Positions 2,645 through 48,184 of a DNA stretch of 64,000 nucleotides are shown here, one piece after another. The notes under the pieces were generated by a model. That model was not told the DNA's origin. It saw nothing but the letters and a program-made list of their open reading frames with translations, and searched no databases. Both the position numbers and the translations under genes were made by a program. This DNA comes from a virus: positions 1 through 64,000 of the IMG/VR virus record IMGVR_UViG_3300008448_000014, one strand, 5' to 3'. Numbering within the stretch: position 1 is the stretch's first letter; each line of letters starts with the position of its first letter.

Positions 2645-3248
2645 AATTAGTTATTTAATAATAATAGTTTTAGTTATTATTATTCTAATACAAAGATCTT
2701 GTACAGGACCATCTATTATAAATAATGATCCTCAGATATCTGTAAAAATAGATACAGTATATAAATATATTACTGACACTATTACTAAAACTGTAAAGTT
2801 AAAATCAGTTGTTTATGTAAAACCAGATGGTCCTCAATACTATCCAGGTGAGACTATTGATACATGTAAACAAAGATTCCAAAACTTATTAAAAGAACAT
2901 ATTGCTAAGAAAGTATATAAAGACACTTTAAAACTAGATAGTCTTGGAACTATAACAGTTATAGATACAGTGTGGATTAATAAATTATATGGTAAGAGAA
3001 CATATATACAAGATATTAAAATACCAACTGTTACAAAAACAGTTACAATTACTAAAACAGAAGATCCTAAAAGACAATTATATATAGGAGGTAATTTGTT
3101 TGGAGATAAATCACAATTACAATTAGTAACTCCAGGGATTCTATATAAAACTAAAAAAGACCATATATATCAAGTTAACCTAGGAGTAAATTTTGATGGT
3201 TCTATTACATATGGATTAGGACTATATTATAAAATCAAACTAAAATAA
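2622..3248 (+). CDS. spanin-like membrane-anchored protein
   Basis: N-terminal TM, DTV/DTI-rich stalk, C-terminal amphipathic beta strands (YGLGLYYKI), next to the endolysin. Confidence 0.55.
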   Translation: MLLKNKNKISYLIIIVLVIIILIQRSCTGPSIINNDPQISVKIDTVYKYITDTITKTVKLKSVVYVKPDGPQYYPGETIDTCKQRFQNLLKEHIAKKVYKDTLKLDSLGTITVIDTVWINKLYGKRTYIQDIKIPTVTKTVTITKTEDPKRQLYIGGNLFGDKSQLQLVTPGILYKTKKDHIYQVNLGVNFDGSITYGLGLYYKIKLK

Positions 3249-3254
3249 TAACCA

Positions 3255-3674
3255 ATGGTAACAAGTGCACAATGTTTAAAAAAATATGGTGATCCTACAA
3301 AAGAATCTAACATGATTTTATGGGATGTACCAACTGAATTAGAAATAGGAGTTATACCTAAAAGATTATATTGTAATAAAGACTTAATTGCTCCACTTAC
3401 AAAAGCATTTAAAAATCTTATAGATACAGGATTTGTAAAAGAATTAAAAACCTGGGATGGATGTTTCAATATCAGAAAGAAAAGAGGTTTAAAAAGCATG
3501 TCATTACATTCATGGGGAATTGCCATTGATGTAAATGCTGCATGGAATGGATTAGGGAAAACTCCACAACTATCTGCAGGATTTGTAAAATGTTTTACAG
3601 ATGCTGGGTTTGATTGGGGTGGAAATTGGACAAATAGACCTGACGGAATGCATTTTCAACTAAATAAAATATAA
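3255..3674 (+). CDS. endolysin, M15 family peptidase
   Basis: SLHSWGIAIDVN (SxHxxGxAxD) and DGMHFQ motifs. Confidence 0.9.
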   Translation: MVTSAQCLKKYGDPTKESNMILWDVPTELEIGVIPKRLYCNKDLIAPLTKAFKNLIDTGFVKELKTWDGCFNIRKKRGLKSMSLHSWGIAIDVNAAWNGLGKTPQLSAGFVKCFTDAGFDWGGNWTNRPDGMHFQLNKI

Positions 3675-3811
3675 TGGCAAAGATAACCAACACAGTAGAA
3701 AAAATAGCTAAACCAAAGGTTAAACGTCCTGGTGTTCATGCTAAATCAAAAACTTCTAAATTAAAAACTAGTAAGTTATATAAGAAAGCTTATAATTCTC
3801 AAGGTAGATAA
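3674..3811 (+). CDS. small basic protein (45 aa, MAKITNTVEK...NSQGR), not in ORF track
   Basis: TAATG overlaps with both neighbouring genes; Lys-rich. Confidence 0.7.
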   Translation: MAKITNTVEKIAKPKVKRPGVHAKSKTSKLKTSKLYKKAYNSQGR

Positions 3812-4113
3812 TGGAAATCATATTTCAAGGTAATGTAGCAACAGATGGTAGTACAAAAATAACTTGTACATCTACTTCTATGGTTGTAAATGAAATTATT
3901 ATAAATAATATAGATAATAATTACAATATTACTATGAATAGGTTTATGACAGGAGAAGGAATACACCTTATACCTATATATGAATTTGCTTTAGATCTTG
4001 GAGATACAGTAAGAGACACTGAAGGATACACACTAAATCAAGGTAATTTTTTACAACTAATAACTAATGTAATAGGTACAACTTATTATATTAGTGCAAC
4101 AGAAACAGACTAA
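3811..4113 (+). CDS. small beta-rich structural protein
   Basis: Coupled ORF upstream of the fibre gene. Confidence 0.45.
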   Translation: MEIIFQGNVATDGSTKITCTSTSMVVNEIIINNIDNNYNITMNRFMTGEGIHLIPIYEFALDLGDTVRDTEGYTLNQGNFLQLITNVIGTTYYISATETD

Positions 4114-5274
4114 ATGTTACAGATATATAATAAATATGGACAGTTAAAAGTTGTTTCTTCTACATCAAGCACTGGTGTATCTTCTGTTTCAGGAGTTTCT
4201 CCTATCACCTCTACAGGAGGAACAAATCCTATTATTAGTACATTGGTAACTCCTAATAAATTATTAGGAAGATATAGTGCTAGCACTGGACCAATGCAAG
4301 AAATTATAATTGGAAGTGGATTATCTTTAGTTGGTAACACTCTTACCTCTACAAGTGCTGTTACACCAAACGCATTAACAAAAGTTGATGATACTAATGT
4401 TACATTAACATTGGGAGGAAATCCATCAACAGCTTTATTACAAAATGTGTCATTAACATTAGGATGGACAGGGACTTTAGCAGATAGTAGAATAACATCA
4501 GCTAGTACATGGAATGCTAAACAAGATGCAATTTCTTTAACTACATTAGGAACTTCAGGTCCAGCTACATTTATTTCTAATGTATTAAATATTCCACAAT
4601 ATACAGAGGTTTTTACTGGAACAGTTACATCTGTAGCAGCATTGACATTAGGTACTACAGGTACAGATTTATCATCAAGTGTTGTAAATAGTACAACAAC
4701 TCCTGTAATAACTTTAAATGTTCCTACAGCTAGTGCTACAAACAGAGGAGCTTTAAGTAGTACAGATTGGACTATATTTAACAATAAGCAAAATAATTTA
4801 GGCTATACGCCACCTCAAACTTGGTACAGGGGATTAGATGGTGTTACTGTTGCAAATACTCTAACAATTACTCCAACTTATACTCAATTAATACCAGCTA
4901 ATACATTTGCATCTGGTGATGTAGTTGAATTATTATTTAGAAGTACAGCACCTGGAGCTAAAACATCAGCTTCAAGTATTTATGTCTACATAAACACTAC
5001 TAACAATTTGAGTGGAACTCCAATTCAAGTTGGTATTTTAACAGGTGGTGCAACAACAAGAACTATTCAAATAGAAAGAGCTTTAGCTATAAAAGGAGCA
5101 ACAACAAGAGTTATAAATTCAGCTGGTACAACTGCAACTGATACTGGAATAAGTGCCGCAATGTCAACACTTACGATTGATTGGACAGTAAACCAATTCT
5201 TTGTCTTTGCAATAGGACATACAGTTGCTGACCAAACACTAACAGGAGATTTTTACAGAATAACAAAAAATTAA
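4114..5274 (+). CDS. tail/head fibre protein
   Basis: Thr/Ser/Gly-rich fibre repeats (GTVTSV, WNAKQD, FNNKQ) and a beta-rich C-terminal domain. Confidence 0.7.
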   Translation: MLQIYNKYGQLKVVSSTSSTGVSSVSGVSPITSTGGTNPIISTLVTPNKLLGRYSASTGPMQEIIIGSGLSLVGNTLTSTSAVTPNALTKVDDTNVTLTLGGNPSTALLQNVSLTLGWTGTLADSRITSASTWNAKQDAISLTTLGTSGPATFISNVLNIPQYTEVFTGTVTSVAALTLGTTGTDLSSSVVNSTTTPVITLNVPTASATNRGALSSTDWTIFNNKQNNLGYTPPQTWYRGLDGVTVANTLTITPTYTQLIPANTFASGDVVELLFRSTAPGAKTSASSIYVYINTTNNLSGTPIQVGILTGGATTRTIQIERALAIKGATTRVINSAGTTATDTGISAAMSTLTIDWTVNQFFVFAIGHTVADQTLTGDFYRITKN

Positions 5275-5280
5275 AAAGAT

Positions 5281-5436
5281 ATGAACATAACAAGAGAATT
5301 TTTAGAAAATGGATACATTATTCATAATGATACACAAGTAAGTGTAGAAGTTGACGGTCAAGTTATTTTATATACAGTTGAAAATACTCAACAATTTATA
5401 AAACAATTAGAACAAAATAACAATATAAACAAATAA
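5281..5436 (+). CDS. small hypothetical protein (51 aa), not in ORF track
   Basis: ATG..TAA frame directly after the fibre gene. Confidence 0.5.
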   Translation: MNITREFLENGYIIHNDTQVSVEVDGQVILYTVENTQQFIKQLEQNNNINK

Positions 5437-5452
5437 TATTAAAAATTATATT

Positions 5453-5460
5453 TACATTTG
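5453..5460 (+). promoter_or_regulatory. -7 promoter element TACATTTG
   Basis: TAnnTTTG match 24 nt upstream of ATG 5484. Confidence 0.55.
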
Positions 5461-5483
5461 TAAAACTTAAAATATTAAAAATC

Positions 5484-6134
5484 ATGGCAATACCATCTAG
5501 ACAAATAGGTTGGAGTACAGAATCAAACCTATTATGGCAAATATTAAAACAACTCACTAGACTAACCTCTACATTATTTAGTTTAAAAGAAGCAGCTACA
5601 CCTAAATATAAAGTGTATACAGCTTTATTAACACAGAGTGGTGGAGATAATATCTTACCAATTAATACAGGAGACCTAACAATAGGCGTAACATATTTGA
5701 TAAATGATTCTTCTGTAGGAATGGATTTTACTAATGTAGGTGCTCCTAATAATGATTCGGGAACATATTTTGTTGCTACAGGAACTACACCTAATAGTTG
5801 GGGAATAGATGAAGGAGGACCTGGTATTTTATTATACAATACAGGGGCTCCAGTAGTAACAGTATTAGAAAACACTATTGGGAATATTTGGTTTACTTAT
5901 CAAGATGTTGGAAACTATATTGTTAATTCTAATGGTTTATTTACTGCTAATAAAACTATACCACAAATGCTCCCTGAGGGATATACAGAAGACTCTGAAA
6001 ATATATATAGTTATGAATGTTTTCCTACAGATACTAATAGTATTGGAATAAGAACACTTAGTAAATCAGTTTCTACAGACAATTTATTAGGAGCTTATGC
6101 CCAAAATGCAATAGAAATAAAAGTTTATAACTAA
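5484..6134 (+). CDS. modular virion decoration/fibre-like protein (RQIGWS module plus YKVYTALL...IEIKVYN domain)
   Basis: Shares modules with the ORFs at 6152 and 7341. Confidence 0.5.
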   Translation: MAIPSRQIGWSTESNLLWQILKQLTRLTSTLFSLKEAATPKYKVYTALLTQSGGDNILPINTGDLTIGVTYLINDSSVGMDFTNVGAPNNDSGTYFVATGTTPNSWGIDEGGPGILLYNTGAPVVTVLENTIGNIWFTYQDVGNYIVNSNGLFTANKTIPQMLPEGYTEDSENIYSYECFPTDTNSIGIRTLSKSVSTDNLLGAYAQNAIEIKVYN

Positions 6135-6151
6135 TAAATATAAAAGAAAAA

Positions 6152-6295
6152 ATGAGTATAGGCAATAGACAAATAGGTTGGTCTCAAGAGAGTAATCTTC
6201 TTTGGGAAATTTCAAAACAGCTTGATAGAGCAATATCAGTGTTATGCACAGGACCATGTTCTACAACTACAACTACCTCCACTATAGCAATTTAA
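6152..6295 (+). CDS. 47-aa protein: RQIGWS module plus poly-Thr tail, not in ORF track
   Basis: MSIGNRQIGWSQESNLLWEISKQL...CTGPCSTTTTTSTIAI; N-terminus paralogous to 5484. Confidence 0.8.
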   Translation: MSIGNRQIGWSQESNLLWEISKQLDRAISVLCTGPCSTTTTTSTIAI

Positions 6296-6320
6296 TAAAA
6301 AACAATAAACCAACTACATA

Positions 6321-7334
6321 ATGAAACCAATATTCATCACAGCTCAACCTACAGATAGTTATTTTGTATGGCAAAATCATATGTATATAGAATCTTGTTT
6401 AGCTCAAGGAATTGAACAAGAACAAATACATATTCTATTATACAATCCTATAGGAAGACCTTATAATACCAACTGGGATAAATTAAAAGAATGTTACCCA
6501 AAATTAAATATATTTGTATATCAAGATAAAGGAGTTCAAAAGTTTTTAGGAACTTATATCCCTATATTAAGACCACATATTCTTTGGCAACATTTTGAAG
6601 CTTTTCCAGAATTACAAGATAAAACAATAGTATACACTGACTGTGATATTCTTTGGACAGATAACATGAACATTAATCAGTTATTAGAAGATAACATAAA
6701 TTATGTTAGTGATGCTAGTTCTTATTTAAATAATTCTTATTTTGAAAGTAAAGTAAAAGATGTACTTCCTGATAAGTTAGAACAATATAAAAACAGAGAT
6801 GTAGTAAAAGAACTTTGTACAATAACAGGAATAGATAAACAAACTGTATTAGACAATAATTCAAATACAGGTGGTGTACAATATATATTAAAAAACATTA
6901 ATTCTGATTTTTGGAAAAAAGTGGAAAAAGATGTTCTTCTTATTAGAACACATTTATTGAATTTCAATAGAGAGTTTTTTAAAGATGAAAATAGTGGCAT
7001 ACAATCATGGTGTGCAGATTTATGGGCAGTGCAATACAATCTTTGGTATTTTAACAAAGAGAGTAGAACAACTAAAGAATTAGATTTTGCATGGAGTACA
7101 GATCCTATAAGTAAATTAGAATCATATCCTATTCTTCATAATGCAGGAATAGTTTCTGAAACAGGAAATGGTTACCCAGCTTTCTATAAAGGAAAATATC
7201 ATATGGGAGTTGATCCAACAAAAGATGCTAACCTAGATGTTATTCTTAATAATGAACAATCAAAAAAATATTGTACATGGTTCTATGCTACAAAATTGAA
7301 TGAAATTAAAAATAAATATAAACTTAATTATTAA
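6321..7334 (+). CDS. GT-A glycosyltransferase resembling HPAT/SRGT1 protein O-glycosyltransferases
   Basis: DCD (DxD) motif with YFVWQ, LRPHIL, GGVQY and WCADLWA in the same order as SRGT1/HPAT motifs (recalled, not searched). Confidence 0.65.
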   Translation: MKPIFITAQPTDSYFVWQNHMYIESCLAQGIEQEQIHILLYNPIGRPYNTNWDKLKECYPKLNIFVYQDKGVQKFLGTYIPILRPHILWQHFEAFPELQDKTIVYTDCDILWTDNMNINQLLEDNINYVSDASSYLNNSYFESKVKDVLPDKLEQYKNRDVVKELCTITGIDKQTVLDNNSNTGGVQYILKNINSDFWKKVEKDVLLIRTHLLNFNREFFKDENSGIQSWCADLWAVQYNLWYFNKESRTTKELDFAWSTDPISKLESYPILHNAGIVSETGNGYPAFYKGKYHMGVDPTKDANLDVILNNEQSKKYCTWFYATKLNEIKNKYKLNY

Positions 7335-7340
7335 AATATT

Positions 7341-7817
7341 ATGCCTACATTTATAAAAGCTGGATTTTGGAATAAAAAAAAATATAAGTTAAATGGAGAA
7401 TTAGATCTTGATAGATTAATAGAAACATTTATTTCTTCATCAACTACTACTACAACTACAACCCAACCTCCTTATAAGGTTTATACTGCTTTGTTATCTC
7501 AAAATGGAACTGCATTATCTCCTCCAACAGCAATTGAACTAGAAAACACTTTAGGGTTTTCTCCTGCTTGGTTTGCACAGAGTGTAGGACAGTATTTTAC
7601 TCAAAATGTAGAGTTCGATGCTTCTTATTTAGATAAAGTAACTGTAATTGTAACTCCTATAAATAGATCTGGAAAAAGTATTAATTTAGAAGCTTATGCT
7701 AATATTCAAACTAATGGTATTTGGCTTATGTCAAAAAATGGAACATCTTTTGAAGATGGATTGTTGTCAAATGGTCCAAACGTAAAAACAACTCTTGAAA
7801 TAAGAGTATATAATTAA
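7341..7817 (+). CDS. modular protein: TFIKxGFW module, poly-Thr linker, YKVYTALL...LEIRVYN domain
   Basis: Direct sequence comparison with 5484 and 8776. Confidence 0.55.
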   Translation: MPTFIKAGFWNKKKYKLNGELDLDRLIETFISSSTTTTTTTQPPYKVYTALLSQNGTALSPPTAIELENTLGFSPAWFAQSVGQYFTQNVEFDASYLDKVTVIVTPINRSGKSINLEAYANIQTNGIWLMSKNGTSFEDGLLSNGPNVKTTLEIRVYN

Positions 7818-7846
7818 ACAAATATTAACTATTAAATATAAATAAA

Positions 7847-8056
7847 ATGACACCAAACAAACGTGACTTAAAAGCGTATGTACGCTTTGATGGTTCAGGA
7901 AGAGTAGTTCCTGGAAGCTTAGTACTTAGACGTAATAAACCTAAAGTAGGTAAATGGCAAGAGATTATTGGATATGAGTGTTGTAATCCTACAACAACAT
8001 CAACAACAACTCTAGCACCAACCACTACAACAACAACAACAACTTTAGCTCTTTAA
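7847..8056 (+). CDS. small protein with C-terminal poly-Thr tail
   Basis: ...ECCNPTTTSTTTLAPTTTTTTTLAL. Confidence 0.7.
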   Translation: MTPNKRDLKAYVRFDGSGRVVPGSLVLRRNKPKVGKWQEIIGYECCNPTTTSTTTLAPTTTTTTTTLAL

Positions 8057-8073
8057 TTTTAAAAGCATACAAC

Positions 8074-8490
8074 ATGGCACTAAAATCCATATTTCCAGAA
8101 GAAATGATGGAATCAAAAGGAAGTTCTAGTATGACACTAGAAAGTATAGCTGGTAAGCTAACATATTTTCATGAACAATTACATTTGTTACATTGGCAAA
8201 CAAGAGTGTATGCAGAACATCAAGCTTTAGGAGGATTGTATGATTATGTACATGATTTTAAAGATGGTGTTATAGAGAAACTTATGGGATATACAGGTAA
8301 AAGACCTGGTGTATTTAAAATAGATCCTCTTACAAACTGTACAGCTATGTCTTGTGTAGAAGCTCTTTGCAATTTTGCAAGTGAATTAAAAGCATATGGT
8401 GATGCAAATAGTTATCATGATATTGGAAATTTAGCAGATGCATTATCAGGTGAATCTGCAAAGGTAAAATATCTATTAACATTATCATAA
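8074..8490 (+). CDS. ferritin/Dps-like four-helix protein (DUF5856-like)
   Basis: LHLLHWQT...AEHQALGGLYD...D..IE...KYLLTL pattern. Confidence 0.7.
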   Translation: MALKSIFPEEMMESKGSSSMTLESIAGKLTYFHEQLHLLHWQTRVYAEHQALGGLYDYVHDFKDGVIEKLMGYTGKRPGVFKIDPLTNCTAMSCVEALCNFASELKAYGDANSYHDIGNLADALSGESAKVKYLLTLS

Positions 8491-8774
8491 TGAATATAAA
8501 CAGAAAACATTTTCCTAAAGTGATGCAAGATAATGATGAAATTTTTTTTGCATCACTAATAGGAGTAATAGAATCTGTAGATGAATTATGTAGTTTAGAG
8601 ATTACAAAAAACAATGATAATTATAGATTTAGAATAGCAGCAAGTCTTCCTATGTATAACAATATGCTTATAGAAGAAATATTAAAGTTCTGTAATCTAT
8701 TCCATATCAAACTTGATATGAGCAAGAGTATTAAAACAACAAGCGTTATTACATTTGATATAAATTTAGAATAA
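8490..8774 (+). CDS. hypothetical protein
   Basis: Coupled ORF. Confidence 0.6.
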   Translation: MNINRKHFPKVMQDNDEIFFASLIGVIESVDELCSLEITKNNDNYRFRIAASLPMYNNMLIEEILKFCNLFHIKLDMSKSIKTTSVITFDINLE

Positions 8775-8775
8775 C

Positions 8776-9426
8776 ATGGCAACATTTATAAAAGTTGGTT
8801 TCTGGGAACAACTATGTAAACCTTGTAAAGGATATAAGGGATGGCTTAATCTTGATGATTTTGTAAATTCAAGAGTGGTTCCAGGTCCTCCTGGTCCTCA
8901 AGGTCCTGCTGGTCCTTCTGATGGGCTATTTGCTCAAACAGGAAACTCAACAATTGTAACAGGTATTACTGAAAGCACATTAATAAATGGTGGTGTAGGA
9001 ACTTTATCTATACCTGCAAATGGATTTCAAGTAGGAGATAGTTTTAGAGCTGTTTTTGGTGGTGTTATGAATGCTGTAAATAACCAAACTATTAGAATAA
9101 GAGTTAAAGCAGGAGCTATTACATTATTAGATAGTGGTGTACAAAACTTAGGTAGTAGTGTTATAAATGATATTTGGAGTTTAAATATTGATTTTACAAT
9201 TAGACAAATTGGATTACCAGGTGTAGCATCTATTGTTTCATTAGGTAATTTTCATTATACAAAAACTAACAATGCTTCTGTACAAGGTTTTGGATTTAAT
9301 ACTGTAAACAATACAACATTTAGTACAACAATTAATAATACATTAGATGTTACAGTACAATGGGGATCTGCTAATGCAGGAAATAACATTTACAGTGATA
9401 TATTTATATTGAACAAAACATATTAA
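8776..9426 (+). CDS. fibre-like protein: TFIKxGFW module, short collagen GPP/GPQ repeat, beta-rich domain
   Basis: PGPPGPQGPAGP; N-terminus shared with 7341. Confidence 0.6.
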   Translation: MATFIKVGFWEQLCKPCKGYKGWLNLDDFVNSRVVPGPPGPQGPAGPSDGLFAQTGNSTIVTGITESTLINGGVGTLSIPANGFQVGDSFRAVFGGVMNAVNNQTIRIRVKAGAITLLDSGVQNLGSSVINDIWSLNIDFTIRQIGLPGVASIVSLGNFHYTKTNNASVQGFGFNTVNNTTFSTTINNTLDVTVQWGSANAGNNIYSDIFILNKTY

Positions 9427-9492: not shown

Positions 9493-9711
9493 ATGTCAAA
9501 TTATGACCCAAACAAGAAATATTCTTGGACACCTGAAGACAAATTTGAATTATCTGGAAGAGATTTTGGATTAATTCTAAACACATTAAGAGCTATATTA
9601 GCTAAACCAGAATCTCAAGAAGTGTTATTAGCTCATCAAGCTTCTAATACATTAGAAGGCATTTTAGCTCAAGCTGTAGAAGCAGGAATTGCTAAAGAAT
9701 CAACAGAATAA
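9493..9711 (+). CDS. hypothetical protein
   Basis: ORF on the local coding strand. Confidence 0.6.
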   Translation: MSNYDPNKKYSWTPEDKFELSGRDFGLILNTLRAILAKPESQEVLLAHQASNTLEGILAQAVEAGIAKESTE

Positions 9712-9767
9712 CAAAAAGGCTGGTTGGGTGATTAAGAACCAGGCGTAGATAATATAAGCACTTCTCT

Positions 9768-9971
9768 ATGAGAATATATGAACCAAAGAACAGAATAGAT
9801 GTTATAACCCCCAAGGGAGAGGGAGTGATTTTTCTTGTTACAGACTATGGTCATGAGACAGACACCATCTATACAATTATAATAAACACTACAGGTGAGA
9901 TGTGGCAATACACTCACAAAGATATAATAGTTAAACCCAATATAACATTTAAACGCTATGGCAACAATTAA
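9768..9971 (+). CDS. hypothetical small beta protein
   Basis: ORF overlapping the next gene. Confidence 0.55.
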   Translation: MRIYEPKNRIDVITPKGEGVIFLVTDYGHETDTIYTIIINTTGEMWQYTHKDIIVKPNITFKRYGNN

Positions 9972-10401
9972 AAAAGCACAGAATGGTTCTAATTTTGGAT
10001 TACCAAAAGGTGCAAAAGCAGTTCCTCAAAAAGATAGAAGACCTTCTTATATTCAAAAAGCAGATAAGAGTATTACTAATTTTTCTAAAAAAGTATCTGA
10101 TAAAGTTTCAGATGATTTAAAACCTGAAAATGTTAAAAAAGCTTTAAAAAATTTAAAAAATTTTGGTAAGGACTTAATAGGTATGAAAGCTGGTGGGTCT
10201 GTTAAAAAGAAAATGAGAAATGGTGGGTCTCTATCTGGACTTAAAGCATCAAACAAAAGAGCTGGTTCTGAAAAAGGAGCTTGGATCACTGTACAAAACA
10301 AAACATTAGCTGGTGCTACAAGTAAAGCTAAACTTACCAAAGACAAACAACTTGGTGCTACAAAAATGGCTAAAAGAGGAATGTCTATTAAAAAGAAATA
10401 A
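9958..10401 (+). CDS. Lys-rich basic protein with KxxxG(G) motifs
   Basis: KKAQNG, MKAGG, KKMRNGG. Confidence 0.65.
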   Translation: MATIKKAQNGSNFGLPKGAKAVPQKDRRPSYIQKADKSITNFSKKVSDKVSDDLKPENVKKALKNLKNFGKDLIGMKAGGSVKKKMRNGGSLSGLKASNKRAGSEKGAWITVQNKTLAGATSKAKLTKDKQLGATKMAKRGMSIKKK

Positions 10402-10556
10402 TGGCTACTGATAAAAAATGGATTCAGAAAGCAGTAAAAGGAATGCGTAAAGATAAACCTTGTACTGGGCCTAAACTTGGTAGTAAAACTTGTCCTCCTG
10501 GAAGTAAAAGATATAATCTTGCCAAAACTTTTAGTAAAATGAATAAAAAGAAATAA
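10401..10556 (+). CDS. 51-aa basic protein, not in ORF track
   Basis: MATDKKWIQKAVK...NLAKTFSKMNKKK; TAATG coupling to the previous gene. Confidence 0.7.
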   Translation: MATDKKWIQKAVKGMRKDKPCTGPKLGSKTCPPGSKRYNLAKTFSKMNKKK

Positions 10557-10558
10557 TT

Positions 10559-11068
10559 ATGGCAAATATAACAAAAGTACCTAATGGTCCTCTTATTAAA
10601 AAGAAGGGTGAGTTTAAAGGAAGTACATTAAAAGCTGGTGGTGTTGTTAAGAAAGCACAAACTGGTGATAGTTTAACTCCTCAACAAAAAAGAGCTAAGT
10701 TAGATAGTATTACAGCAGTTAAAAGAGCTGAAATAACAAGGAAAAAAGATTCTATTCTTAATAGAAATGCTGCAGCTCAAGGTCTTACAAGAGAACAAGT
10801 AAGAGCTAAGCAAGAAGCTGATAAAAAGAAACCAGATGCCACTAGTTCTAGTTTAAGTGGACAAAATGCAGGTCCTGATGGATGTAAAGCTATTGGTAAA
10901 GCTGCTAGAGCTAGAAAGAAAAATGGTGGTATGATTAAACGTGCTGATGGTTCATTTTCTAAACCTGGTCTTTGGGATAATATCCGTAAGAATAAAGGAT
11001 CTGGAAAGAAGCCTACAAAGCAAATGTTAGTACAAGAGAAGAAGATTAAAGCTAAATCTAAGAAATAA
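10559..11068 (+). CDS. Lys-rich basic protein
   Basis: KAGG, KKAQTG, KKNGG and GLWDNIR motifs. Confidence 0.65.
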   Translation: MANITKVPNGPLIKKKGEFKGSTLKAGGVVKKAQTGDSLTPQQKRAKLDSITAVKRAEITRKKDSILNRNAAAQGLTREQVRAKQEADKKKPDATSSSLSGQNAGPDGCKAIGKAARARKKNGGMIKRADGSFSKPGLWDNIRKNKGSGKKPTKQMLVQEKKIKAKSKK

Positions 11069-30460: not shown

Positions 30461-31105
30461 TTAATTTAAATAATAAAAATTTGTTTTTAATTTATTGTTT
30501 TTAATTTTACCTTCAAGGTATCTTTTTATAATAGAGAAAGATACATTATAGTGTTTAGCTGCTTCAGAAATACTATCCCAAATAGTTTCTTTATTTAAAA
30601 AATTTATTTCTTTTATTTTTATTTTAAATGAGCTATTTTTACTAATATTTAATCTATGTTCTATTGTTATAACCTGCAAAGCTCTTTTTTCTCTTATTTT
30701 ATTTTTTGTTTCTTCAGAATGTTTAGATCCCTTTTTTCTTCCTCTATTTTTACACTTAGATAAAGCTATTCTACAATTTTCTGAAATTATTCCTGTTTTA
30801 CCTCCTTTCGTTTTATTTAATAAATTGTTTCCTTCTTTTTCATACTTTTCTATCCACTCTTTTTCTTTTTCTTCCCATATTTCAGTAAGAACTTCTTCTA
30901 AAATATTTAATTTAGGTCGTATACCTTTTTCTAAAAGGGATTTAATCCATTTTGCTTTATCTTCATTTTTTCCTTTTATGTTATTTTTAGCTTCATGAAT
31001 ATGTCCCCAAAATCTGTTAAAAGGGTCTACAGTTTTTCCTACATATCTAATTTCTTCTGATTCTGGATCAGACAAAGAATAAATATAAACAGTTTTCATT
31101 TTCAT
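30461..31105 (-). CDS. GIY-YIG homing endonuclease (NUMOD3/NUMOD1)
   Basis: VYIYSL.DP...RYVGKT; HSEETKNKI; SISEAAK. Confidence 0.85.
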   Translation of the reverse strand: MKMKTVYIYSLSDPESEEIRYVGKTVDPFNRFWGHIHEAKNNIKGKNEDKAKWIKSLLEKGIRPKLNILEEVLTEIWEEKEKEWIEKYEKEGNNLLNKTKGGKTGIISENCRIALSKCKNRGRKKGSKHSEETKNKIREKRALQVITIEHRLNISKNSSFKIKIKEINFLNKETIWDSISEAAKHYNVSFSIIKRYLEGKIKNNKLKTNFYYLN

Positions 31106-33485: not shown

Positions 33486-34568
33486 TTATATATATTTAAT
33501 TTTGTTTTTATCTATTAATTGAAGTGATTTCTCAAGCCATTTATTTTGAAAAACTTCTGTACTCACAAATATATGTATATGTGAATGATCTGTATCATCT
33601 AGTAAACTTCTTCCTATCATTTGCTCTAAATTTTCTCCATTACCATTAATGGCAGTTATTAATATATTTTGCAATTCTGGAAAAGTTACACCAGCAGAAG
33701 CTTTCTTTAATAAACACAATTGATTTATATCTCCTTGTTGAAATTGTTTTAAAATAGAATCATCTTTACTTTTACTATTGAACATAGGAAGATTATATTT
33801 AAGTCCTGTTTTTTCATCAGAACTAAATAATATAAACCTCTTATCTTTGTTATTGATAATCCATTTGTTTACACATTCAATTAAAGAGTCACATGAATTA
33901 ATAAATCTCATTCTTTCTAAAGACTTAAACATCTTTAGTTGACCACTGCTTTTTAATATAAAAGCACTGAGTCTGTTACATTCTTTTTTCTCTGTTGATT
34001 TCCATTTCTTTACTCTACCATACTCTACTATTTTAGTGTTATTTAAATTATATCTATGTATATAAATAGTAAAATCACTAACAATACCATCTTTAATAGC
34101 TTTGTTAGTAGAATAATCTACTATCAATTTCATTTTAGTAAAAAACTTTATGTCAGCTAAAGTTTCTTTATTATACGTACCAGAAGCAAACATTACATGT
34201 TTATTGTTTTTTGCTATATCTCCTGCAATAGGCATTTGATTTTCTTCTCCAAGAAGATGAGCTTCATCAAATACATAATAATCAGCAATTACTTTTTTGT
34301 TTTTTTCTAAAGACATAAAAGTGGAAAATATAATAATTTGTTTAAAGTTTAATCTATTTATTTCATTTTCCCAAGAAATACGCACGTCTATATTAGGATA
34401 AGCTATAAACACTGTTATTTCTTTATTATTACTATGATTTTTTATTGATTCTAAAATCATTTTTGTTTTTCCTGATCTTACACTAGATAATATAATACCT
34501 TTACAATTATTTTCTATAATAGTATTTTGTATTTTTTCTTGAATTAAATCTTTTTTTGTATTAATCAT
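33486..34568 (-). CDS. SF2 helicase (DExH)
   Basis: RSGKT, FDEAH, SGT, QMIGR; probable ATG 34568. Confidence 0.8.
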   Translation of the reverse strand: MINTKKDLIQEKIQNTIIENNCKGIILSSVRSGKTKMILESIKNHSNNKEITVFIAYPNIDVRISWENEINRLNFKQIIIFSTFMSLEKNKKVIADYYVFDEAHLLGEENQMPIAGDIAKNNKHVMFASGTYNKETLADIKFFTKMKLIVDYSTNKAIKDGIVSDFTIYIHRYNLNNTKIVEYGRVKKWKSTEKKECNRLSAFILKSSGQLKMFKSLERMRFINSCDSLIECVNKWIINNKDKRFILFSSDEKTGLKYNLPMFNSKSKDDSILKQFQQGDINQLCLLKKASAGVTFPELQNILITAINGNGENLEQMIGRSLLDDTDHSHIHIFVSTEVFQNKWLEKSLQLIDKNKIKYI

Positions 34569-35313
34569 ATTTATATTTCCATTTAAATCCACAAGATTGT
34601 TTTTGCCTACCTTTTAACGTTGCAGGTATATCTCCTTTAAAAAATTTTTTAGCTTCTGTTACAGTTTTCCATTCTTTAATAAAATTATCATTTAAATCAT
34701 ATTGTATTATAGGTTTTGAAACTCTTTCAGAAACTTTTTTTCTATTCTCAATTGACATACCTTTACCTATATTACCTAGTTTAATTTTTTCTTTAGTAAT
34801 TTCAGATAAAATTCTACCTTTTTTAGCTTTGCTCATTTTTTCACGAGCCTCTTTTGACATTTTTTTACCTTTGTTACCTTGAGAAATTTTTTTCTTAGTA
34901 TCTTCAGTATGTTTTTTATTTAAAAAATGTCCTACATGTCCTAATAATGTTTTAGATATTTTATTTTTAGTTTCTTGTAAAATTATTCTATTACTCATTT
35001 TTTTCTTTGTTTCCTCGCTTACTATTCTAGGTAAAATATCTGTTTCTTGTAATCTACAATTTAACCCTTTAGTGGAAACAACATTAAATAAATCTTGATA
35101 ATATCTTTCTTTAAGATTTAATTGATCATGTTTACATTCTTCAATTATTTCAAAAATATGATTTTCTACGCCATATTTTAAAAAGCTTTTATACAAAATA
35201 GGTTGATTTTTACAAGAAAGATTTTTATAATTTTTAAATCTTTTTTCAATATTAATACTTTGCCCAATGTATATTTTACCACTTGGACTTGTGATTTTAT
35301 AAATTCCTATCAT
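34561..35313 (-). CDS. GIY-YIG homing endonuclease (NUMOD3 + NUMOD1)
   Basis: MIGIYKITSPSGKIYIGQS; ATG at 35313. Confidence 0.9.
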   Translation of the reverse strand: MIGIYKITSPSGKIYIGQSINIEKRFKNYKNLSCKNQPILYKSFLKYGVENHIFEIIEECKHDQLNLKERYYQDLFNVVSTKGLNCRLQETDILPRIVSEETKKKMSNRIILQETKNKISKTLLGHVGHFLNKKHTEDTKKKISQGNKGKKMSKEAREKMSKAKKGRILSEITKEKIKLGNIGKGMSIENRKKVSERVSKPIIQYDLNDNFIKEWKTVTEAKKFFKGDIPATLKGRQKQSCGFKWKYKYD

Positions 35314-36356
35314 TTTGTATAAAATTAATTTTATACAAAAATAAGTAATTAATATCAATATTTGGACAAAGTATTATTTTTTTTTTATCTACACTTGTAT
35401 TTCTGTTTTTGTCATAATTCTTTGTTATAATATTCTTCTTCAAAATGTTCATATAAAGCCATCAATGTGTAAGAATGTTTTTTTGTTAACCATTCAGCAA
35501 AATGAATTACTTTGTTATCAGTATTAATTTTTTCTAGTTCTTTTGCTTTTTCAATAATTGGTTCATCATCAGCTATACTCACACCAGTTAATGTTTTTAT
35601 ACCATCAACTACATATTCTACTGCTGTCATAACTTCTTAGTTAAATAATATTTTAAATCTAATGCTCTTCTTTTAACAGCACCAGACATTCTGGTATTGC
35701 TAATATCATGTTTACCTATAACTATTCCATTATAACTACTAACATATCCTGTTGTAGCTTTAGCAACTGTTATAGCTTCATCCACTGTATCTGAGAATCT
35801 TTTGATTTCAGATTTAATTTGTATTAAGTCTTCTAGTTTCATTTTTTATTATATTTTATTAATTTCTATTTTGTTTTAAATTATTTTTCCATTCTATCCA
35901 AAAACCTATAGCTACTAATATATTCATACCAAAAGAAGCAATAATTTCATGTAAGTCTTCATATATATTCATAGTTAAGTGAACATGTCCAATTACCCAA
36001 AAAGGTACTGATAAATTACTTGCTGTCCATGTTATAAAAAATATAATAAATTTTTTCATTTGTCTCCTTTACTAATCAAGTAATACCATAACCAAATCAC
36101 TTTTGGCCTTATAAACTCATAACCTATCCATATTAATAAGTATTTCATTCTTCTTTGTTTTTTATATATCCATATACATTAAAACCTTCTTCATCTTCAT
36201 ATTTAGTACCATCCTTACGAACTCCCCATTTATACCACATAGCCATAATTGTTGATTCATTAGTTTTACTCCATTTATCATCTTCAAACCTGAATTGTTC
36301 TTTGTCTGATTTTTCTTTAAATAAAGGAACAAATCCTTCTGGTTTTTCTTTTCTCA

Positions 36357-43818: not shown

Positions 43819-44019
43819 TTATTTAATTTGAATAATTAATTCTTTATTTAGTTTATTACAAAACTTTTCTAATTGGTCTAATGATAAATCTAATCTACCA
43901 CTTAACCATTGAGTCATATTTGGCGTATGAGCTTTATATCCTAACATTATACAAAAATCTGTCTGAGAGCAATTATAGCTTTGAAATAAGTCCCATAATA
44001 TTTGATTAGATTGTTTCAT
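43819..44019 (-). CDS. XRE-type HTH protein
   Basis: SQTDFC.MLG...MTQWLSG...LSLDQLEKFC. Confidence 0.65.
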   Translation of the reverse strand: MKQSNQILWDLFQSYNCSQTDFCIMLGYKAHTPNMTQWLSGRLDLSLDQLEKFCNKLNKELIIQIK

Positions 44020-44457: not shown

Positions 44458-45135
44458 TCATAATTTTTTAAATGTTTTATTAATCCATTCTGCAAACAAC
44501 AATAACTCTTCAACTGTAGCAGAATTTTTAATTGTATTAGCTTTCATTGAAATAATTTGTATATTACCTTTTATATATCCTTTAGTGTTATCAATTCTGT
44601 CTACAGAAGGCGAAAATTTATAATTATCTTTAGTTCCTTGTATTATAGGCTGTAACAGAATAGGACATATTTTTGGTATAACAATATCTTCTAGAGTAAT
44701 ATTAAATTCTATTCCTTTTTTTAAAGCTCTATCTTTACAACCTTTTAACAAAACTGCAGAAATATTTCTTAATCTACTTTCTCTTTTTTGTTTATTAATT
44801 TTTTCTTTAAAAATAGGATCATTATGTATTTTTTCTTTTCTTACAGCTCCAGATTTTTTAGCATATTCAGAAACTTTGTGTTTTTCTGAACAACATGTTT
44901 TACACCAAGTGTGTAATCCACCTTGTAATCCTGCATTTTTTGAAAACTCTTTTGCAGGTTTTGTTTTTTTACAACAAAAACAAGTTTTTTCAGTTAATGT
45001 TATTTCATATCTTTTAGTTTGTTTGATTAATGATGCACACTTTCTACAAGTACTTATAGTACCATCTAATGTTAATTTTGAATTTACAAATTCAATTAAA
45101 GGTTTTTCAATATTGCAATGTTTACAAATCTTCAT
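44458..45135 (-). CDS. HNH homing endonuclease with Zn ribbons
   Basis: CxxC repeats; SPSVDRIDNTKGYIKGNIQIIS..AN; ATG at 45135. Confidence 0.85.
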   Translation of the reverse strand: MKICKHCNIEKPLIEFVNSKLTLDGTISTCRKCASLIKQTKRYEITLTEKTCFCCKKTKPAKEFSKNAGLQGGLHTWCKTCCSEKHKVSEYAKKSGAVRKEKIHNDPIFKEKINKQKRESRLRNISAVLLKGCKDRALKKGIEFNITLEDIVIPKICPILLQPIIQGTKDNYKFSPSVDRIDNTKGYIKGNIQIISMKANTIKNSATVEELLLFAEWINKTFKKL

Positions 45136-45211
45136 AATTACTTTATTTAATGAGCTCAAATTTACTTAAAGAACTCATTAAATAAAAATATTTAACAAGA
45201 AATTAACATTA

Positions 45212-47242
45212 TCACTTTGCATCATACCAAGAATTTCCATAATGTGCGTCTGCCTTGATTTTTAATGTTTGTAAATAATGGTTTCCACCTTCAATCATAG
45301 CTTCTTCAACTTTAGTTCTAGCTAATTCTGCTAAATCTACAGGACATTCTATTACTAATTCATCATGTACAGAATTACATATTTTAATTATATTAATATA
45401 ATTATTATCAACTATCCAATCAAAAAGTATTAAAGCACTTCTCTTAATCATCATGGCACTTCTGGCTTGAACAGGGTTGTTAAGGCATAAACGTTGGTAT
45501 TCAGATTTAAGTTTAAAAAATTGACTCACTTCTGTTTTCTTTGACTTATAATATGTCACAGCTTTAGGAAATATATATGTATATTCATTTCCTTTTTCTT
45601 TCTCATCAAACTTCTTTTTATAATCTAATTTACCTTGTTTATATAACTGCCATTGTTCTTTAGTTATAGCCTCAACTTTACCTTTGTATTCATTAAACTT
45701 ATCAAACTTTGGTAGAGCTAGTTTCCAACCATCTGCAGATTCTATATATCCTTGCTTAACAGCTTTATTGAATTCTTCTGCTCCCCATGTATACAATCCT
45801 TCATGAAGTTCTTTAAAAGCATCTTCAATTCTATATGCTTGTACTAATGGTATTCCTTCATTTTGATGAATAGTATATGCAGAACCACCATATTGAAATG
45901 CAAACCTTGGACTCTTTGCTGCTTGTCTTTTAGATTTATGTTCTTTAATGATTGTTTCATCATCAAGTTCTTCTAATTCTGGATATAAAACTCTAGCAAA
46001 AGCACAATGCAAATCATCTCCATTAACTACAGAAGATGTCATTGCAGCATCTCCAGATAAATCTGCAGCTACAACAGTTTCTTGACCACTATAATCACAA
46101 ACAATAATTACATTACCTTTATTAGCTTTAAAACACTTTCTTGTAATACTATCAGAAGGAAAATTTAAAAAGTTTATATTTCCTTTTCTAGTAGATAGTC
46201 TAGCTGTATCAACCATAGGATTAAAGTTAGTGTATATACGTTCATTCTCTATTTGCTTGTATATACTTTCTCCAAAGGTTGTAACTCTATGATTAGCTTC
46301 TTGAAAACTAAGCCACATATCAACAAAATCATGTTTAGATTTCTTTATAATGTTTTCTCCAATACTATCTTTACCATCTTTATCCTTTGTAGGGATACCA
46401 AAAGCATTAAAGACTTTAAGCATTTGTGATGGTGAATTAATAGATACATGTATTCTTTTCTTTGTGTCAAACATATCTATTTGTCCATCTGCAAATTGTG
46501 GAAGATTATCATATATATACTCTTCAATTATAGTTTTCCATTTGAATGTATTTTCTATGTCTTCAACCATTTTATCTTTCCATGATTTAGAGCTAATAGG
46601 AAGCCCACATTGCTCAATATATGCTAAAGCTCTAATATATCTACAATGAAGATTATATGTCTCTGTAAAGCCTCTTTTATTGATTTTAAGCATTAATGCA
46701 TCATGTAACTCAATAAGTCTATCAACATCATTAAATGAATACTCAATTGTACTCTGTTGGCTTAATTTAACTATATGAATATTCTTTTGGTCTGTTTTGT
46801 CATATATAACATCAAGTTCTCTTTCCATCACTTTACCAAAATCATGTCTATAAGGCATAAAGTCTTTATCAACTTGTCCATTATATATAATCTTACTAGC
46901 AAGCATTGTATCTCTAACATCTTTAGGATAGAATCCATACTTATAACAAAACCCTACATCAAATAATGCATTATGAAATATTAATGTCTTGCTCTCTATA
47001 TAAGGAACCAAATCACTAAACTTATAACTATTTTCTCCACTAGTATATAAGTCTATAATATAATTGTTTTTTCCTGTTCCAATTTGTACACAAAATATAT
47101 CACAATGTCTTGGTTGAAGTCCACTAGTTTCTGTGTCTATTCCTATAATATCAGGTAAAATTAAATCAGTTAAATCACAGTAATTATACTTACCAATTTT
47201 TTCAAAATATTTTTTATTTTTAGTTATAATAAAATTTGCCAT
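45212..47242 (-). CDS. polA: DNA polymerase family A with 3'-5' exonuclease
   Basis: DTETSG, HNALFD, TARLS, DYSGQE, RQAAK...YG, NNPVQ, VHDE. Confidence 0.95.
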   Translation of the reverse strand: MANFIITKNKKYFEKIGKYNYCDLTDLILPDIIGIDTETSGLQPRHCDIFCVQIGTGKNNYIIDLYTSGENSYKFSDLVPYIESKTLIFHNALFDVGFCYKYGFYPKDVRDTMLASKIIYNGQVDKDFMPYRHDFGKVMERELDVIYDKTDQKNIHIVKLSQQSTIEYSFNDVDRLIELHDALMLKINKRGFTETYNLHCRYIRALAYIEQCGLPISSKSWKDKMVEDIENTFKWKTIIEEYIYDNLPQFADGQIDMFDTKKRIHVSINSPSQMLKVFNAFGIPTKDKDGKDSIGENIIKKSKHDFVDMWLSFQEANHRVTTFGESIYKQIENERIYTNFNPMVDTARLSTRKGNINFLNFPSDSITRKCFKANKGNVIIVCDYSGQETVVAADLSGDAAMTSSVVNGDDLHCAFARVLYPELEELDDETIIKEHKSKRQAAKSPRFAFQYGGSAYTIHQNEGIPLVQAYRIEDAFKELHEGLYTWGAEEFNKAVKQGYIESADGWKLALPKFDKFNEYKGKVEAITKEQWQLYKQGKLDYKKKFDEKEKGNEYTYIFPKAVTYYKSKKTEVSQFFKLKSEYQRLCLNNPVQARSAMMIKRSALILFDWIVDNNYINIIKICNSVHDELVIECPVDLAELARTKVEEAMIEGGNHYLQTLKIKADAHYGNSWYDAK

Positions 47243-48003
47243 TATTTGTTTCTTTTTACTTTTTTAAAGAATAATCCTTTATAAGATTTGTTATTTTTAA
47301 TTGCTCTAAATATATTTTGATAAGATACTATTTTATTTTTTAAATACTTTTTATTAAATTTTTTAGCATTAATATTGTAAAACTCAATATAATCAGGAAT
47401 TGGTAAATCATTTTCTTTTGTTCTAGAAAATCTATCTATTTCCAAAGTATTATCAAATCTTCTAAAAAAGTTCATATTAATATCATACACTTCTATGTCA
47501 TCAAACATATTTTTTCTAGCATCAGAAATGTTATTACATACTAAACCTTTATTCCAAGAAGGTTTACCTTTTTTAATATTAGATAAATGTTGCCTGTAAT
47601 TTTCATTATTTTTATATCTTTCCTTTAATGTATCACTTATTTTTTTCTTTACATCACTATTACAAGGAGGTTGAGTAGTAACATCACTTATATTGTATCC
47701 ATTTTTAATACTATTAAAAAAGTTTATATAAAAAGATTCTTTTTCTCTTATAAAAGGTATATTATTATTTTCTAATATTTCTATTACAGAAAATTCAAAA
47801 TTTTCTATACCATGTTTTAAAACAGAATTATTTAAATAACTATTATGATGGTTACCTGTCTTAAGTTTTCTTACATGTTCAGTATATCTTCTTTTAAAAG
47901 TCATTTTTGTTGACCCAATGTAAACTTTATTATTTAATAAGTTTTTTATCATATAAACTCCTGAAAGTTTAAATGTTTCTAAATTTGGTATTGCTATTTT
48001 CAT
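47242..48003 (-). CDS. GIY-YIG homing endonuclease
   Basis: SGVYMI...KVYIGST...RY.EH...GYN. Confidence 0.9.
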   Translation of the reverse strand: MKIAIPNLETFKLSGVYMIKNLLNNKVYIGSTKMTFKRRYTEHVRKLKTGNHHNSYLNNSVLKHGIENFEFSVIEILENNNIPFIREKESFYINFFNSIKNGYNISDVTTQPPCNSDVKKKISDTLKERYKNNENYRQHLSNIKKGKPSWNKGLVCNNISDARKNMFDDIEVYDINMNFFRRFDNTLEIDRFSRTKENDLPIPDYIEFYNINAKKFNKKYLKNKIVSYQNIFRAIKNNKSYKGLFFKKVKRNK

Positions 48004-48061
48004 AGCACAAATATATAAAATTTACATTAGATACACAAACATTTTTAAACATTAGTTAGTT

Positions 48062-48184
48062 TTAACCTGTTGTTTCACTATCACAAGCAATTACATCTGG
48101 AAGAATCATATCTTCTAAACTACAATAATTGTAATCACCAATGCTTTCAAACTGTTCTTTATTCTTGCATACTATATAGTTCAT
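48062..48184 (-). pseudogene. stub of a PolA 5' end (40 aa, ends at the ExoI motif DSETTG*)
   Basis: MNYIVCKNKEQFESIGDYNYCSLEDMILPDVIACDSETTG aligns without gaps to the PolA N-terminus. Confidence 0.9.

Follow-up and report, generated by a model that had tools for sequence, protein, structure and literature searches.

The start of a viral gene for a family-A DNA polymerase (PolA) was found to carry an endonuclease cassette that probably derives from a mobile group I intron by loss of the ribozyme, and that holds a duplicated copy of the PolA start. The DNA analysed (the window) is a stretch of 64,000 nt with a G+C content of 27.7%, positions 1 to 64,000 of IMG/VR record IMGVR_UViG_3300008448_000014, which is a complete 113.9-kb virus record with terminal repeats. 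On the minus strand of the window, a 147-aa gene is followed by a 40-codon open reading frame (ORF) homologous to the beginning of PolA (the stub), a 60-nt spacer, a GIY-YIG endonuclease gene and PolA itself (Table 1). A first-pass annotation of the sequence had described a 40-aa stub (nt 48184 – 48062) ahead of a GIY-YIG endonuclease, and an intact PolA that restarts with a homologous sequence coupled by TAATG at nt 47242. Both are present, the TAATG being the overlap between the endonuclease stop and the PolA start.

PolA is recognized by Pfam (DNA_pol_A, 1e-42; 3'-5' exonuclease domain, 6e-18), and the Asp and Glu of the ExoI motif are intact in its replacement start. The endonuclease matches Pfam GIY-YIG (PF01541, E 9.6e-10) over residues 15–104 as well as PHROG homing endonuclease families (1.4e-23), and the motifs GVY..YIG, RR.Y.EH and ENFEF are kept across 22 endonuclease homologs. 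The 147-aa gene has no Pfam or PHROG match. The stub shares 61.5% identity over 39 aa with PolA residues 3–41 (E 1.6e-11 by tblastn against the whole window; 1.2e-15 in a local search), a similarity far above chance. At the DNA level the stub and the replacement start are about 65–70% identical, and their homology ends at the stub stop codon. The first-pass annotation placed the break right after the catalytic DxE motif, and this was borne out: it falls directly after the ExoI motif D-x-E-T-x-G, exactly after the first base (T, nt 48064) of the Leu codon that comes next. The T of the stub stop is the last PolA-derived base, and the AA that completes the stop codon comes from the insert.

The break lies at a group I intron insertion site

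A 64-kb contig (L106), binned in a metagenome-assembled genome and found by searching with aligned endonuclease homologs, has a PolA that is interrupted by an intron with its own endonuclease. Exon 1 is a 40-codon ORF ending in DTETTG and followed by TAA, exon 2 is 63% identical to residues 48–449 of the window PolA, the intron endonuclease is 53% identical to that of the window, and the group I intron scores 87.9 bits (Rfam RF00028; gathering score 50). Joining GGAT to TAGATTCT restores G-L-D-S-K-K-H-D-I-F-C in frame. Group I introns require an exon 1 that ends in U and an intron that ends in G, and both are found in L106. The same arrangement is seen in L096 (66.6 bits) and, by a local scan, in L093/L099 (36.3 bits; E 2e-7), the PolA of which is only about 30% identical to that of the window. 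In these, exon 1 ends in ...DSETKG or ...DTETEG and exon 2 resumes with ...VDCH.K.LL.IQ.G. The endonuclease homologs of L093 and L096 are full-length matches (32–33% identity, E 2e-35), that of L096 being decayed, and the ribozyme follows.

Exon 1 ends at the same nucleotide after DxETxG in L106, L093 and L096, and the junction of stub and insert in the window (GGTT/AAAAC) coincides to the nucleotide with the L106 5' splice site (GGAT/AAATA). In the window and in L106 the stop of the 40-codon ORF combines the last base of the exon with the two bases that open the intron. The spacer ahead of the endonuclease can be aligned among the window, L106, L093 and L027 (a second cassette, described below), in an alignment that also took in L096. 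Judged from these alignments, the break in the window is a group I intron insertion site, and since the window element has kept the 5' leader of the intron, the most plausible reading of the cassette is that of a mobile intron which has lost its ribozyme.

In this phage group the polymerase gene is a hot spot for introns. The PolA of L106 (nt 3300 – 6700) contains three matches to group I introns (87.9, 60.4 and a partial 41.3 bits). In L037 (nt 5998 – 9373) PolA is broken near residue 407 by a 323-aa ORF and a group I intron (88.1 bits; nt 8241 – 8520). A distant PolA in L042 (nt 4131 – 7296) carries a group I intron of 57.3 bits (nt 5712 – 5979) that holds a 31% identical endonuclease homolog; its site lies between the exonuclease and polymerase parts and not at ExoI. 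Full-length endonuclease homologs (29–34% identity) were also found in L070, L072, L075 and L095 (at about nt 4000 – 4800 or 2761 – 3732), between two pieces of a different type of DNA polymerase, an exonuclease part with YDIE.. and a part with ..QANTDG... In L072 and L095 no ribozyme was found at E<=0.1. These four loci may be true split genes, or introns that escape the model.

Loss of the ribozyme and direction of change

No match to the group I intron model (Rfam RF00028) was detected in the window between nt 46950 and 48250 at E<=10, or between nt 44000 and 50000 at E<=1, and Rfam found no group I intron in L027. There is no room for a ribozyme in the window because the endonuclease stop and the PolA start overlap. 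The 3' ends of the endonuclease genes can be aligned up to TTTAAAAAAGT; beyond this point PolA starts within 5 codons in the window and L027, while in L106 and L093 the sequence continues into the ribozyme, which the endonuclease ORFs overlap by at least 26 codons.

The tails of the endonucleases follow a similar division. Among 21 homologs at 50–96% identity, P0001, found in other datasets, is 96% identical to the window protein and has the same short tail. Short-tail forms, which end 4–5 residues after YKGL[FY]FKK, make up a clade of 11 rows (the window, P0001–P0009 and P0015, the motif being undetected in the last) with an ultrafast bootstrap of 95 and a Shimodaira-Hasegawa-like approximate likelihood ratio (SH-aLRT) of 88. 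This clade is nested in one of 22 rows (99/99) together with long-tail forms, the 8–26-residue tails of which are homologous to the ribozyme-overlapping tail of L106; the tail of P0011 translates the conserved ribozyme core (..DELLEKL from GAAUUGCUGGAAAAGCUG). An exception is P0021, a truncated protein of 204 aa with a short tail, which groups with the long-tail P0014 and P0018. The outgroups of the tree, L093 and L042, are intron-borne. The genomic context was seen for four introns (L106, L093, L096, L042) and two cassettes (window, L027), and for the other homologs the tail was taken as a proxy for context. Tree parsimony, together with the retained splice-site boundary and intron leader, favours an order in which the intron came first and the cassette second.

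Table 1. Positions (nt of the window) and strand of features at the PolA and P-loop NTPase loci.
Feature	Position	Strand	Remarks
Conserved upstream neighbour gene, 147 aa	48159..48602	-	last 26 nt overlap stub start
Orphan exon-1 relic (stub) MNYIVCKNKEQFESIGDYNYCSLEDMILPDVIACDSETTG	48184-48065, stop TAA 48064-48062	-	40 codons, ends DSETTG
Insert leader	48004..48063	-	homologous to 5' end of L106 and L093 group I introns
TATATTTG box	48015-48008		4 nt before endonuclease ATG
GIY-YIG homing endonuclease gene, 253 aa	47242..48003	-	short C-terminal tail ..YKGLFFKKVKRNK
PolA, complete gene	47242-45212	-	676 aa
Replacement copy of PolA codons 1-41 (MANFIITKN...DTETSG)	47120..47242	-	duplicated segment, current functional start
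Probable rest of foreign tract, ~codons 42-76	47015..47119	-	approximate boundary; with YTSG insertion common to L038/L035 lineage
Resident family-A polymerase body, residues ~77-676	45212..47014	-	closest to L034, L001, L002
Endonuclease VII/HNH-type gene	44458..45159	-	directly downstream of PolA
NTPase stub ATGAGCTCTAAACTAATTGGAATTGTAGGACAAACAGGT encoding MSSKLIGIVGQTG	32860-32822	-	13 codons; stop 5 codons later
GIY-YIG-like gene at NTPase locus	32765-31854	-	TATATTTG box between stub and gene
P-loop NTPase gene	31857-31186	-	full gene, ATGA overlap with GIY-YIG-like gene

A chimeric polymerase

The window PolA was compared with 40 IMG/VR contigs encoding PolA at 57–79% identity; a whole-locus nucleotide search of a phage collection gave only three short, distant matches. 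Against L034, L001 and L002, residues 1–76 of the window protein match at 63% and residues 77–560 at 90%, and by segment the identity is 82–96% for residues 81–580. The maximum chi-square break lies at residue 76, with a value reached in none of 300 permutations. The N-terminus of PolA is more variable in all relatives; in the window the body match is the highest of all and the N-tract match among the lowest. The replacement start carries an indel ('MAN..') common to L038, L035 and L018, and the new N-tract has two indels (MAN.. and YTS(G)) common to L038 and L035; in trees it groups with L010, L008, L035 and L038 (SH-aLRT 87). When each part was forced to join L034/L001/L002 in the approximately unbiased (AU) test, the new N-tract was rejected (p-AU 0.019), and the stub (0.39) and the body (0.46) were not. 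No donor of the replacement start was found, L038 and L035 being only about 63% identical.

The stub agrees with L034 at 33/40 positions and with L034/L001/L002 combined at 35/40, against 25/41 for the replacement start (Fisher p 0.010). It also stands where PolA natively starts, since in most relatives that lack the endonuclease (e.g. L002, L005, L030) PolA comes immediately after a homolog of the 147-aa gene. Sequence relationships and position thus support the view that the stub is the original 5' end of the resident gene, still in its native location, and that the polymerase is chimeric, with a native body and foreign residues 1–76, of which the tract of about codons 42–76 was probably co-converted. 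A chimeric polymerase with a diverged donor N-terminus had been anticipated in the first-pass annotation, along with separate trees for the stub, the new N-terminus and the PolA body; in these trees the stub and body are compatible with the L034 clade and the new N-tract is not.

A native-like stub and a foreign start could also have been left by a free-standing GIY-YIG endonuclease, located upstream of a donor PolA and without intron ancestry, that cut at the ExoI codons and was followed by one-sided repair, with an illegitimate join upstream leaving the stub. Relatives differ in the sequence upstream of PolA, so that homology on the left side could be absent, and free-standing endonucleases of T4 that cut inside a neighbouring gene are well known (PMC2988022). 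However, illegitimate joins should vary in the base at which they occur, whereas here the left boundary is the nucleotide of the L106 5' splice site, the leader is homologous to the intron, and the endonuclease clade is nested among intron-borne forms. This alternative is the most serious of those considered but is judged unlikely. The earlier proposal, a free-standing nuclease that brought a donor N-terminus, therefore stands as regards the foreign start and not as regards the nuclease, since the site is that of an intron and the intron 5' leader has been retained.

Further signs of exchange were noted in and around PolA. L005 (nt 5992 – 6280), which is without the endonuclease, combines an L003-like body with ~65–93 initial PolA residues that resemble L027/L033. 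A past conversion at the PolA site may have left this footprint, and the site behaves as a recurrent exchange boundary. At the other end of the gene, PolA residues 561–676 match the L034 clade at 76%, relative to 90% for the body. The gene at nt 44458 – 45159 matches PHROG endonuclease VII (1.9e-33) and HNH families, has homologs downstream of PolA only in L023 and L037, and probably represents a second homing endonuclease of the free-standing kind beside the polymerase. These data suggest a second nuclease-associated exchange boundary at the PolA 3' end.

A second cassette in a related virus

Among the 40 PolA relatives only L027, from an independent sample, has an endonuclease at the PolA start; homologs at the same PolA nucleotide are found in L106, L093 and L096. 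The PolA of L027 is 62% and its endonuclease 61% identical to those of the window, and the endonuclease lies directly before the full PolA, with an ATGA overlap. The stub is decayed to ATGAACTATATAATAACTAAACAT (MNYIITKH), a deletion, and GATATAGAAACTACT (DIETT), after which the same leader follows. About two thirds of its length is deleted and PolA is intact, indicating that the stub is dispensable for polymerase function. A metagenome scan with a two-sequence endonuclease alignment found nothing, and a second scan gave distant relatives only. A systematic search of about 105 fetched loci for arrangements of the 'stub – X – gene' kind, close to the survey suggested in the first-pass annotation, returned besides the window only paralog pairs (L039), tandem copies of an endonuclease (L061) and a duplication without a nuclease (L027). 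The decayed PolA stub of L027 escaped this search and was found by eye.

The non-nuclease duplication in L027 (nt 9548 – 10749) is a tandem repeat of about 400 bp (nt 9548 – 9945 and 10422 – 10749) around a metallophosphoesterase fragment. It has produced a stub of 31 aa, identical at 100%, from a 207-aa gene without involvement of a nuclease gene.

Such a case lends some weight to the idea that the start of PolA was duplicated by generic unequal or illegitimate recombination between co-infecting relatives, with the endonuclease as a passenger. Several features make this quite improbable. The break falls in a conserved catalytic motif and at a known intron/endonuclease site in three other PolA lineages, the same junction recurs in L027, and both confirmed stubs of the window (PolA and the NTPase, see below) have a GIY-YIG gene between stub and gene.

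Status of the stub

Compared with L034, 20 codons of the stub are identical, 13 differ synonymously and 7 non-synonymously. The excess of synonymous changes implies that the stub evolved as coding sequence for most of its divergence, and this pattern suggests that it was orphaned fairly recently. Together with the intact ORF and the native start context, the same excess might be taken to mean that the stub is still in use, either spliced or bypassed onto PolA or as a separate 40-aa subunit, and working genes split by endonucleases are known (Aeh1 nrdA and phage 25 gene 43; PMC2988022). This is very improbable, as the first 41 codons of PolA form a complete homologous copy in which the ExoI motif is intact, no ribozyme was found at E<=10, and in L027 the stub has decayed beside an intact PolA.

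Specific forms of use were considered and rejected. Splicing or bypass translation of the stub onto PolA, the outcome that the first-pass annotation regarded as fatal to its reading, has left no sign, with no ribozyme match at E<=10 around the cassette and a complete start in PolA itself. A group I intron with in-frame exon joining would, by joining the stub to PolA, duplicate 41 residues. A split polymerase that needs the 40-aa piece ('genes in pieces', of the Aeh1 nrdA type) does not agree with a downstream ORF that has its own homologous piece and an intact ExoI motif, or with the decay of the stub in L027.

The virus record was assembled from a metagenome, so that reads from intron-bearing and intron-free strains might have been joined by mistake. 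Such an assembly artefact is the least credible explanation of all, given the clean frames with their TAATG overlap, the same layout in the independent sample L027 and the 96% identical short-tail endonuclease P0001 in other datasets, and since the two copies are only ~65–70% identical in DNA, collapse or mis-joining is not expected.

Proposed mechanism

The anatomy of the cassette, the homology of its junction and endonuclease to intron-borne forms, the lack of a ribozyme and the chimeric ancestry of PolA are the observations on which the intron-descent scenario is built. According to this, a clade of GIY-YIG endonucleases in this phage group would target the DNA encoding the ExoI motif of the family-A polymerase, and in some phages the endonuclease gene resides in a presumably self-splicing intron after the first base of the Leu codon following D-x-E-T-x-G. 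In the window the left boundary, intron 5' leader and endonuclease would have been kept and the catalytic RNA core (P2–P9) lost, its place being taken by a second complete copy of PolA codons 1–41 that overlaps the endonuclease stop. PolA would then be read as one uninterrupted frame of 676 aa without splicing, its translation coupled to that of the endonuclease, and the original exon 1 would be left behind as a 40-codon orphan, ended by a stop from the first two bases of the intron. The foreign start and the ~35 codons that follow it may have been acquired when a break made by the endonuclease was repaired on a foreign template, with co-conversion. The endonuclease is presumably active and would cut cassette-free alleles near the site, and the stub may act as the left homology arm during spread.

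Expression of the endonuclease may be driven from within the insert leader. The box TATATTTG is a putative promoter; the pattern TAnnTTTG occurs within 45 nt upstream of 12 of the 65 long ORFs of the window, versus 3.5% expected. The bipartite form TTTG N17-21 TAnnTTTG is present before the endonuclease; over the window it occurs 3 times against 4.9 expected, without enrichment. The TAnnTTTG boxes would fit a promoter element of the Bacteroidota type, a hint at the host phylum.

A number of points weigh against descent from an intron as set out here. The carried starts of the window and L027 match at only 15/41 positions; if the start travels with the endonuclease, related starts would be expected, and otherwise there was a later exchange or the junction originated repeatedly. 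The right-hand junctions of the two cassettes also differ by a few bases. In the functional copy of L027 there is no obvious protective change at the target site, so that it is not apparent that the carried copy is immune. For the AU test, which rejected the new N-tract at p-AU 0.019, the clades were picked after the identity tables had been seen. Lastly, the order of intron and cassette is suggested by parsimony over a partly unresolved tree with six contexts.

Homing endonucleases are thought to persist in essential genes inside self-splicing introns or inteins, or else between genes, and the passage from one of these lifestyles to the other is a long-standing question. One clade at one nucleotide of one gene is now seen in two states, a working-looking intron (L106, L093, L096) and a ribozyme-less form with a duplicated start (window, L027), and the transition is therefore directly testable with natural sequences. 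A more general proposal can be put forward only tentatively: phage group I introns might shed the ribozyme and persist as mobile, start-replacing cassettes, in which the endonuclease retains the insertion site and leader of the intron, the duplicated exon 1 replaces splicing and the orphan exon 1 serves as the left arm. If true, this would be a general and repeatable route between intron-borne and intron-free lifestyles, and a driver of chimeric replication genes. The cassette shows how such elements make mosaic DNA polymerases, and accounts for short orphan ORFs that annotation pipelines would label as hypothetical genes.

Comparison with known systems

In the literature searched, no description was found of a phage endonuclease cassette that replaces a 5' end, and a review of T4 lists gene-splitting insertions and no duplications (PMC2988022). 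The closest described systems are the mORFs of fungal mitochondria (PMC3630166) and the WHO elements of yeasts (PMC7282813). Gene hybrids formed by mORFs are known for atp6 of Allomyces macrogynus, and for atp6, atp9, cox2 and nad3 of Glomus (PMC3630166). As in the window, an endonuclease gene (GIY-YIG or LAGLIDADG) lies in a coding gene between two copies of the gene end; the foreign copy is fused to the core and used, the native orphan is nearer to the gene of near relatives, and splicing is unneeded (PMC3630166). The window has the corresponding order of stub, endonuclease and functional copy at the 5' end of the gene, and by the comparisons given above its stub appears native and its functional copy foreign, as in elements of the mORF and WHO type. 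In mORFs, however, it is the 3' end that is replaced (core, foreign C-terminus, ORF, native C-terminus), the phage case being the mirror order (PMC3630166). The window also differs from mORFs in that the start codon overlaps the endonuclease stop, and in being linked directly to a homolog that an intron carries at the identical nucleotide; to judge from the alignments, this link is what is new here.

The WHO elements, as outlined in PMC7282813, home into FBA1 of Torulaspora and Lachancea yeasts. They replace an end of the target gene at each integration and, as would hold for an intron-derived cassette, they have an ancestry of the splicing type (intein-like) and work without splicing. They differ in being eukaryotic and nuclear, in their intein-related nuclease of the LAGLIDADG type and in replacing the 3' end; their cleavage has been shown experimentally, whereas the phage cassette is known from sequence alone. 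With the cassette, gene-end replacement, known from yeasts and fungal mitochondria, would be extended to 5' ends in phage genes.

Among phage elements, the group I introns with GIY-YIG endonucleases (I-TevI type; the DNA polymerase intron of Pf-WMP3, PMC3428280) resemble the cassette in endonuclease superfamily and in targeting a catalytic motif of a replication gene, and the introns of L106, L093 and L096 further share its insertion nucleotide, a homologous endonuclease and the in-frame stop at the first intron bases. Unlike these, the window lacks the ribozyme core and obtains continuity from the duplicated exon 1. The Seg and Mob endonucleases of T4-like phages (PMC2988022) have their own expression signals, as the window endonuclease may, and likewise lie between phage genes, are patchy in relatives and show apparent co-conversion of flanks, and the bracketing of the window polymerase by nucleases at exchange boundaries may be compared with PMC10448857. 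T4 Seg genes differ in being located between intact genes with no stub, and the mobE and seg43 insertions in splitting a gene into two required polypeptides, whereas in the window the downstream gene is complete and the upstream piece redundant (PMC2988022). In the MobA/gene 60 cassette of T4 an endonuclease is likewise accompanied by a means of keeping the invaded gene working in the absence of RNA splicing; there, the means is a 50-nt translational bypass, and the window has no bypass signal or coding gap (bioRxiv 10.1101/2022.08.31.505936).

Other nuclease-associated loci in the window

The replication module of the window contains at least 5 GIY-YIG-like genes. One of these precedes the P-loop NTPase gene (Table 1), for which the first-pass annotation (as the AAA gene) had proposed the same strategy as for PolA. 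The layout of stub, endonuclease and gene was confirmed there, and the pattern of relatedness is reversed. The break lies inside Walker A, and the two copies differ at 9/39 bases, all silent. The stub has its nearest match in L108 (35/39 nt). For the functional copy this is L107 (32/39), the gene of which is also the nearest overall (97% aa). In the 80 closest relatives there is no endonuclease or stub at the NTPase gene. The patterns at PolA and the NTPase would both fit nucleases located at the boundaries of exchange (PMC10448857).

A further GIY-YIG gene (nt 30461 – 31105, minus strand) lies between the NTPase gene and the next conserved gene, and is there in 1 of 80 relatives (L185, 66% identity). 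A GIY-YIG/NUMOD gene (nt 34561 – 35461, minus strand) overlaps the start of an SF2 helicase gene (nt 34592 – 33486). A candidate stub of the helicase, MNILKKNIITKN...KKKIILCPN near nt 35415, before motif I, is unconfirmed, its tblastn similarity not being significant. On the plus strand (nt 5484 – 9426), several structural-looking genes have a short N-terminal module in common: nt 6152 – 6295 repeats the start of nt 5484 – 6134 (64% over 33 aa), and similar starts occur at nt 7341 – 7817 and 8776 – 9426. These look like paralogs rather than nuclease stubs.

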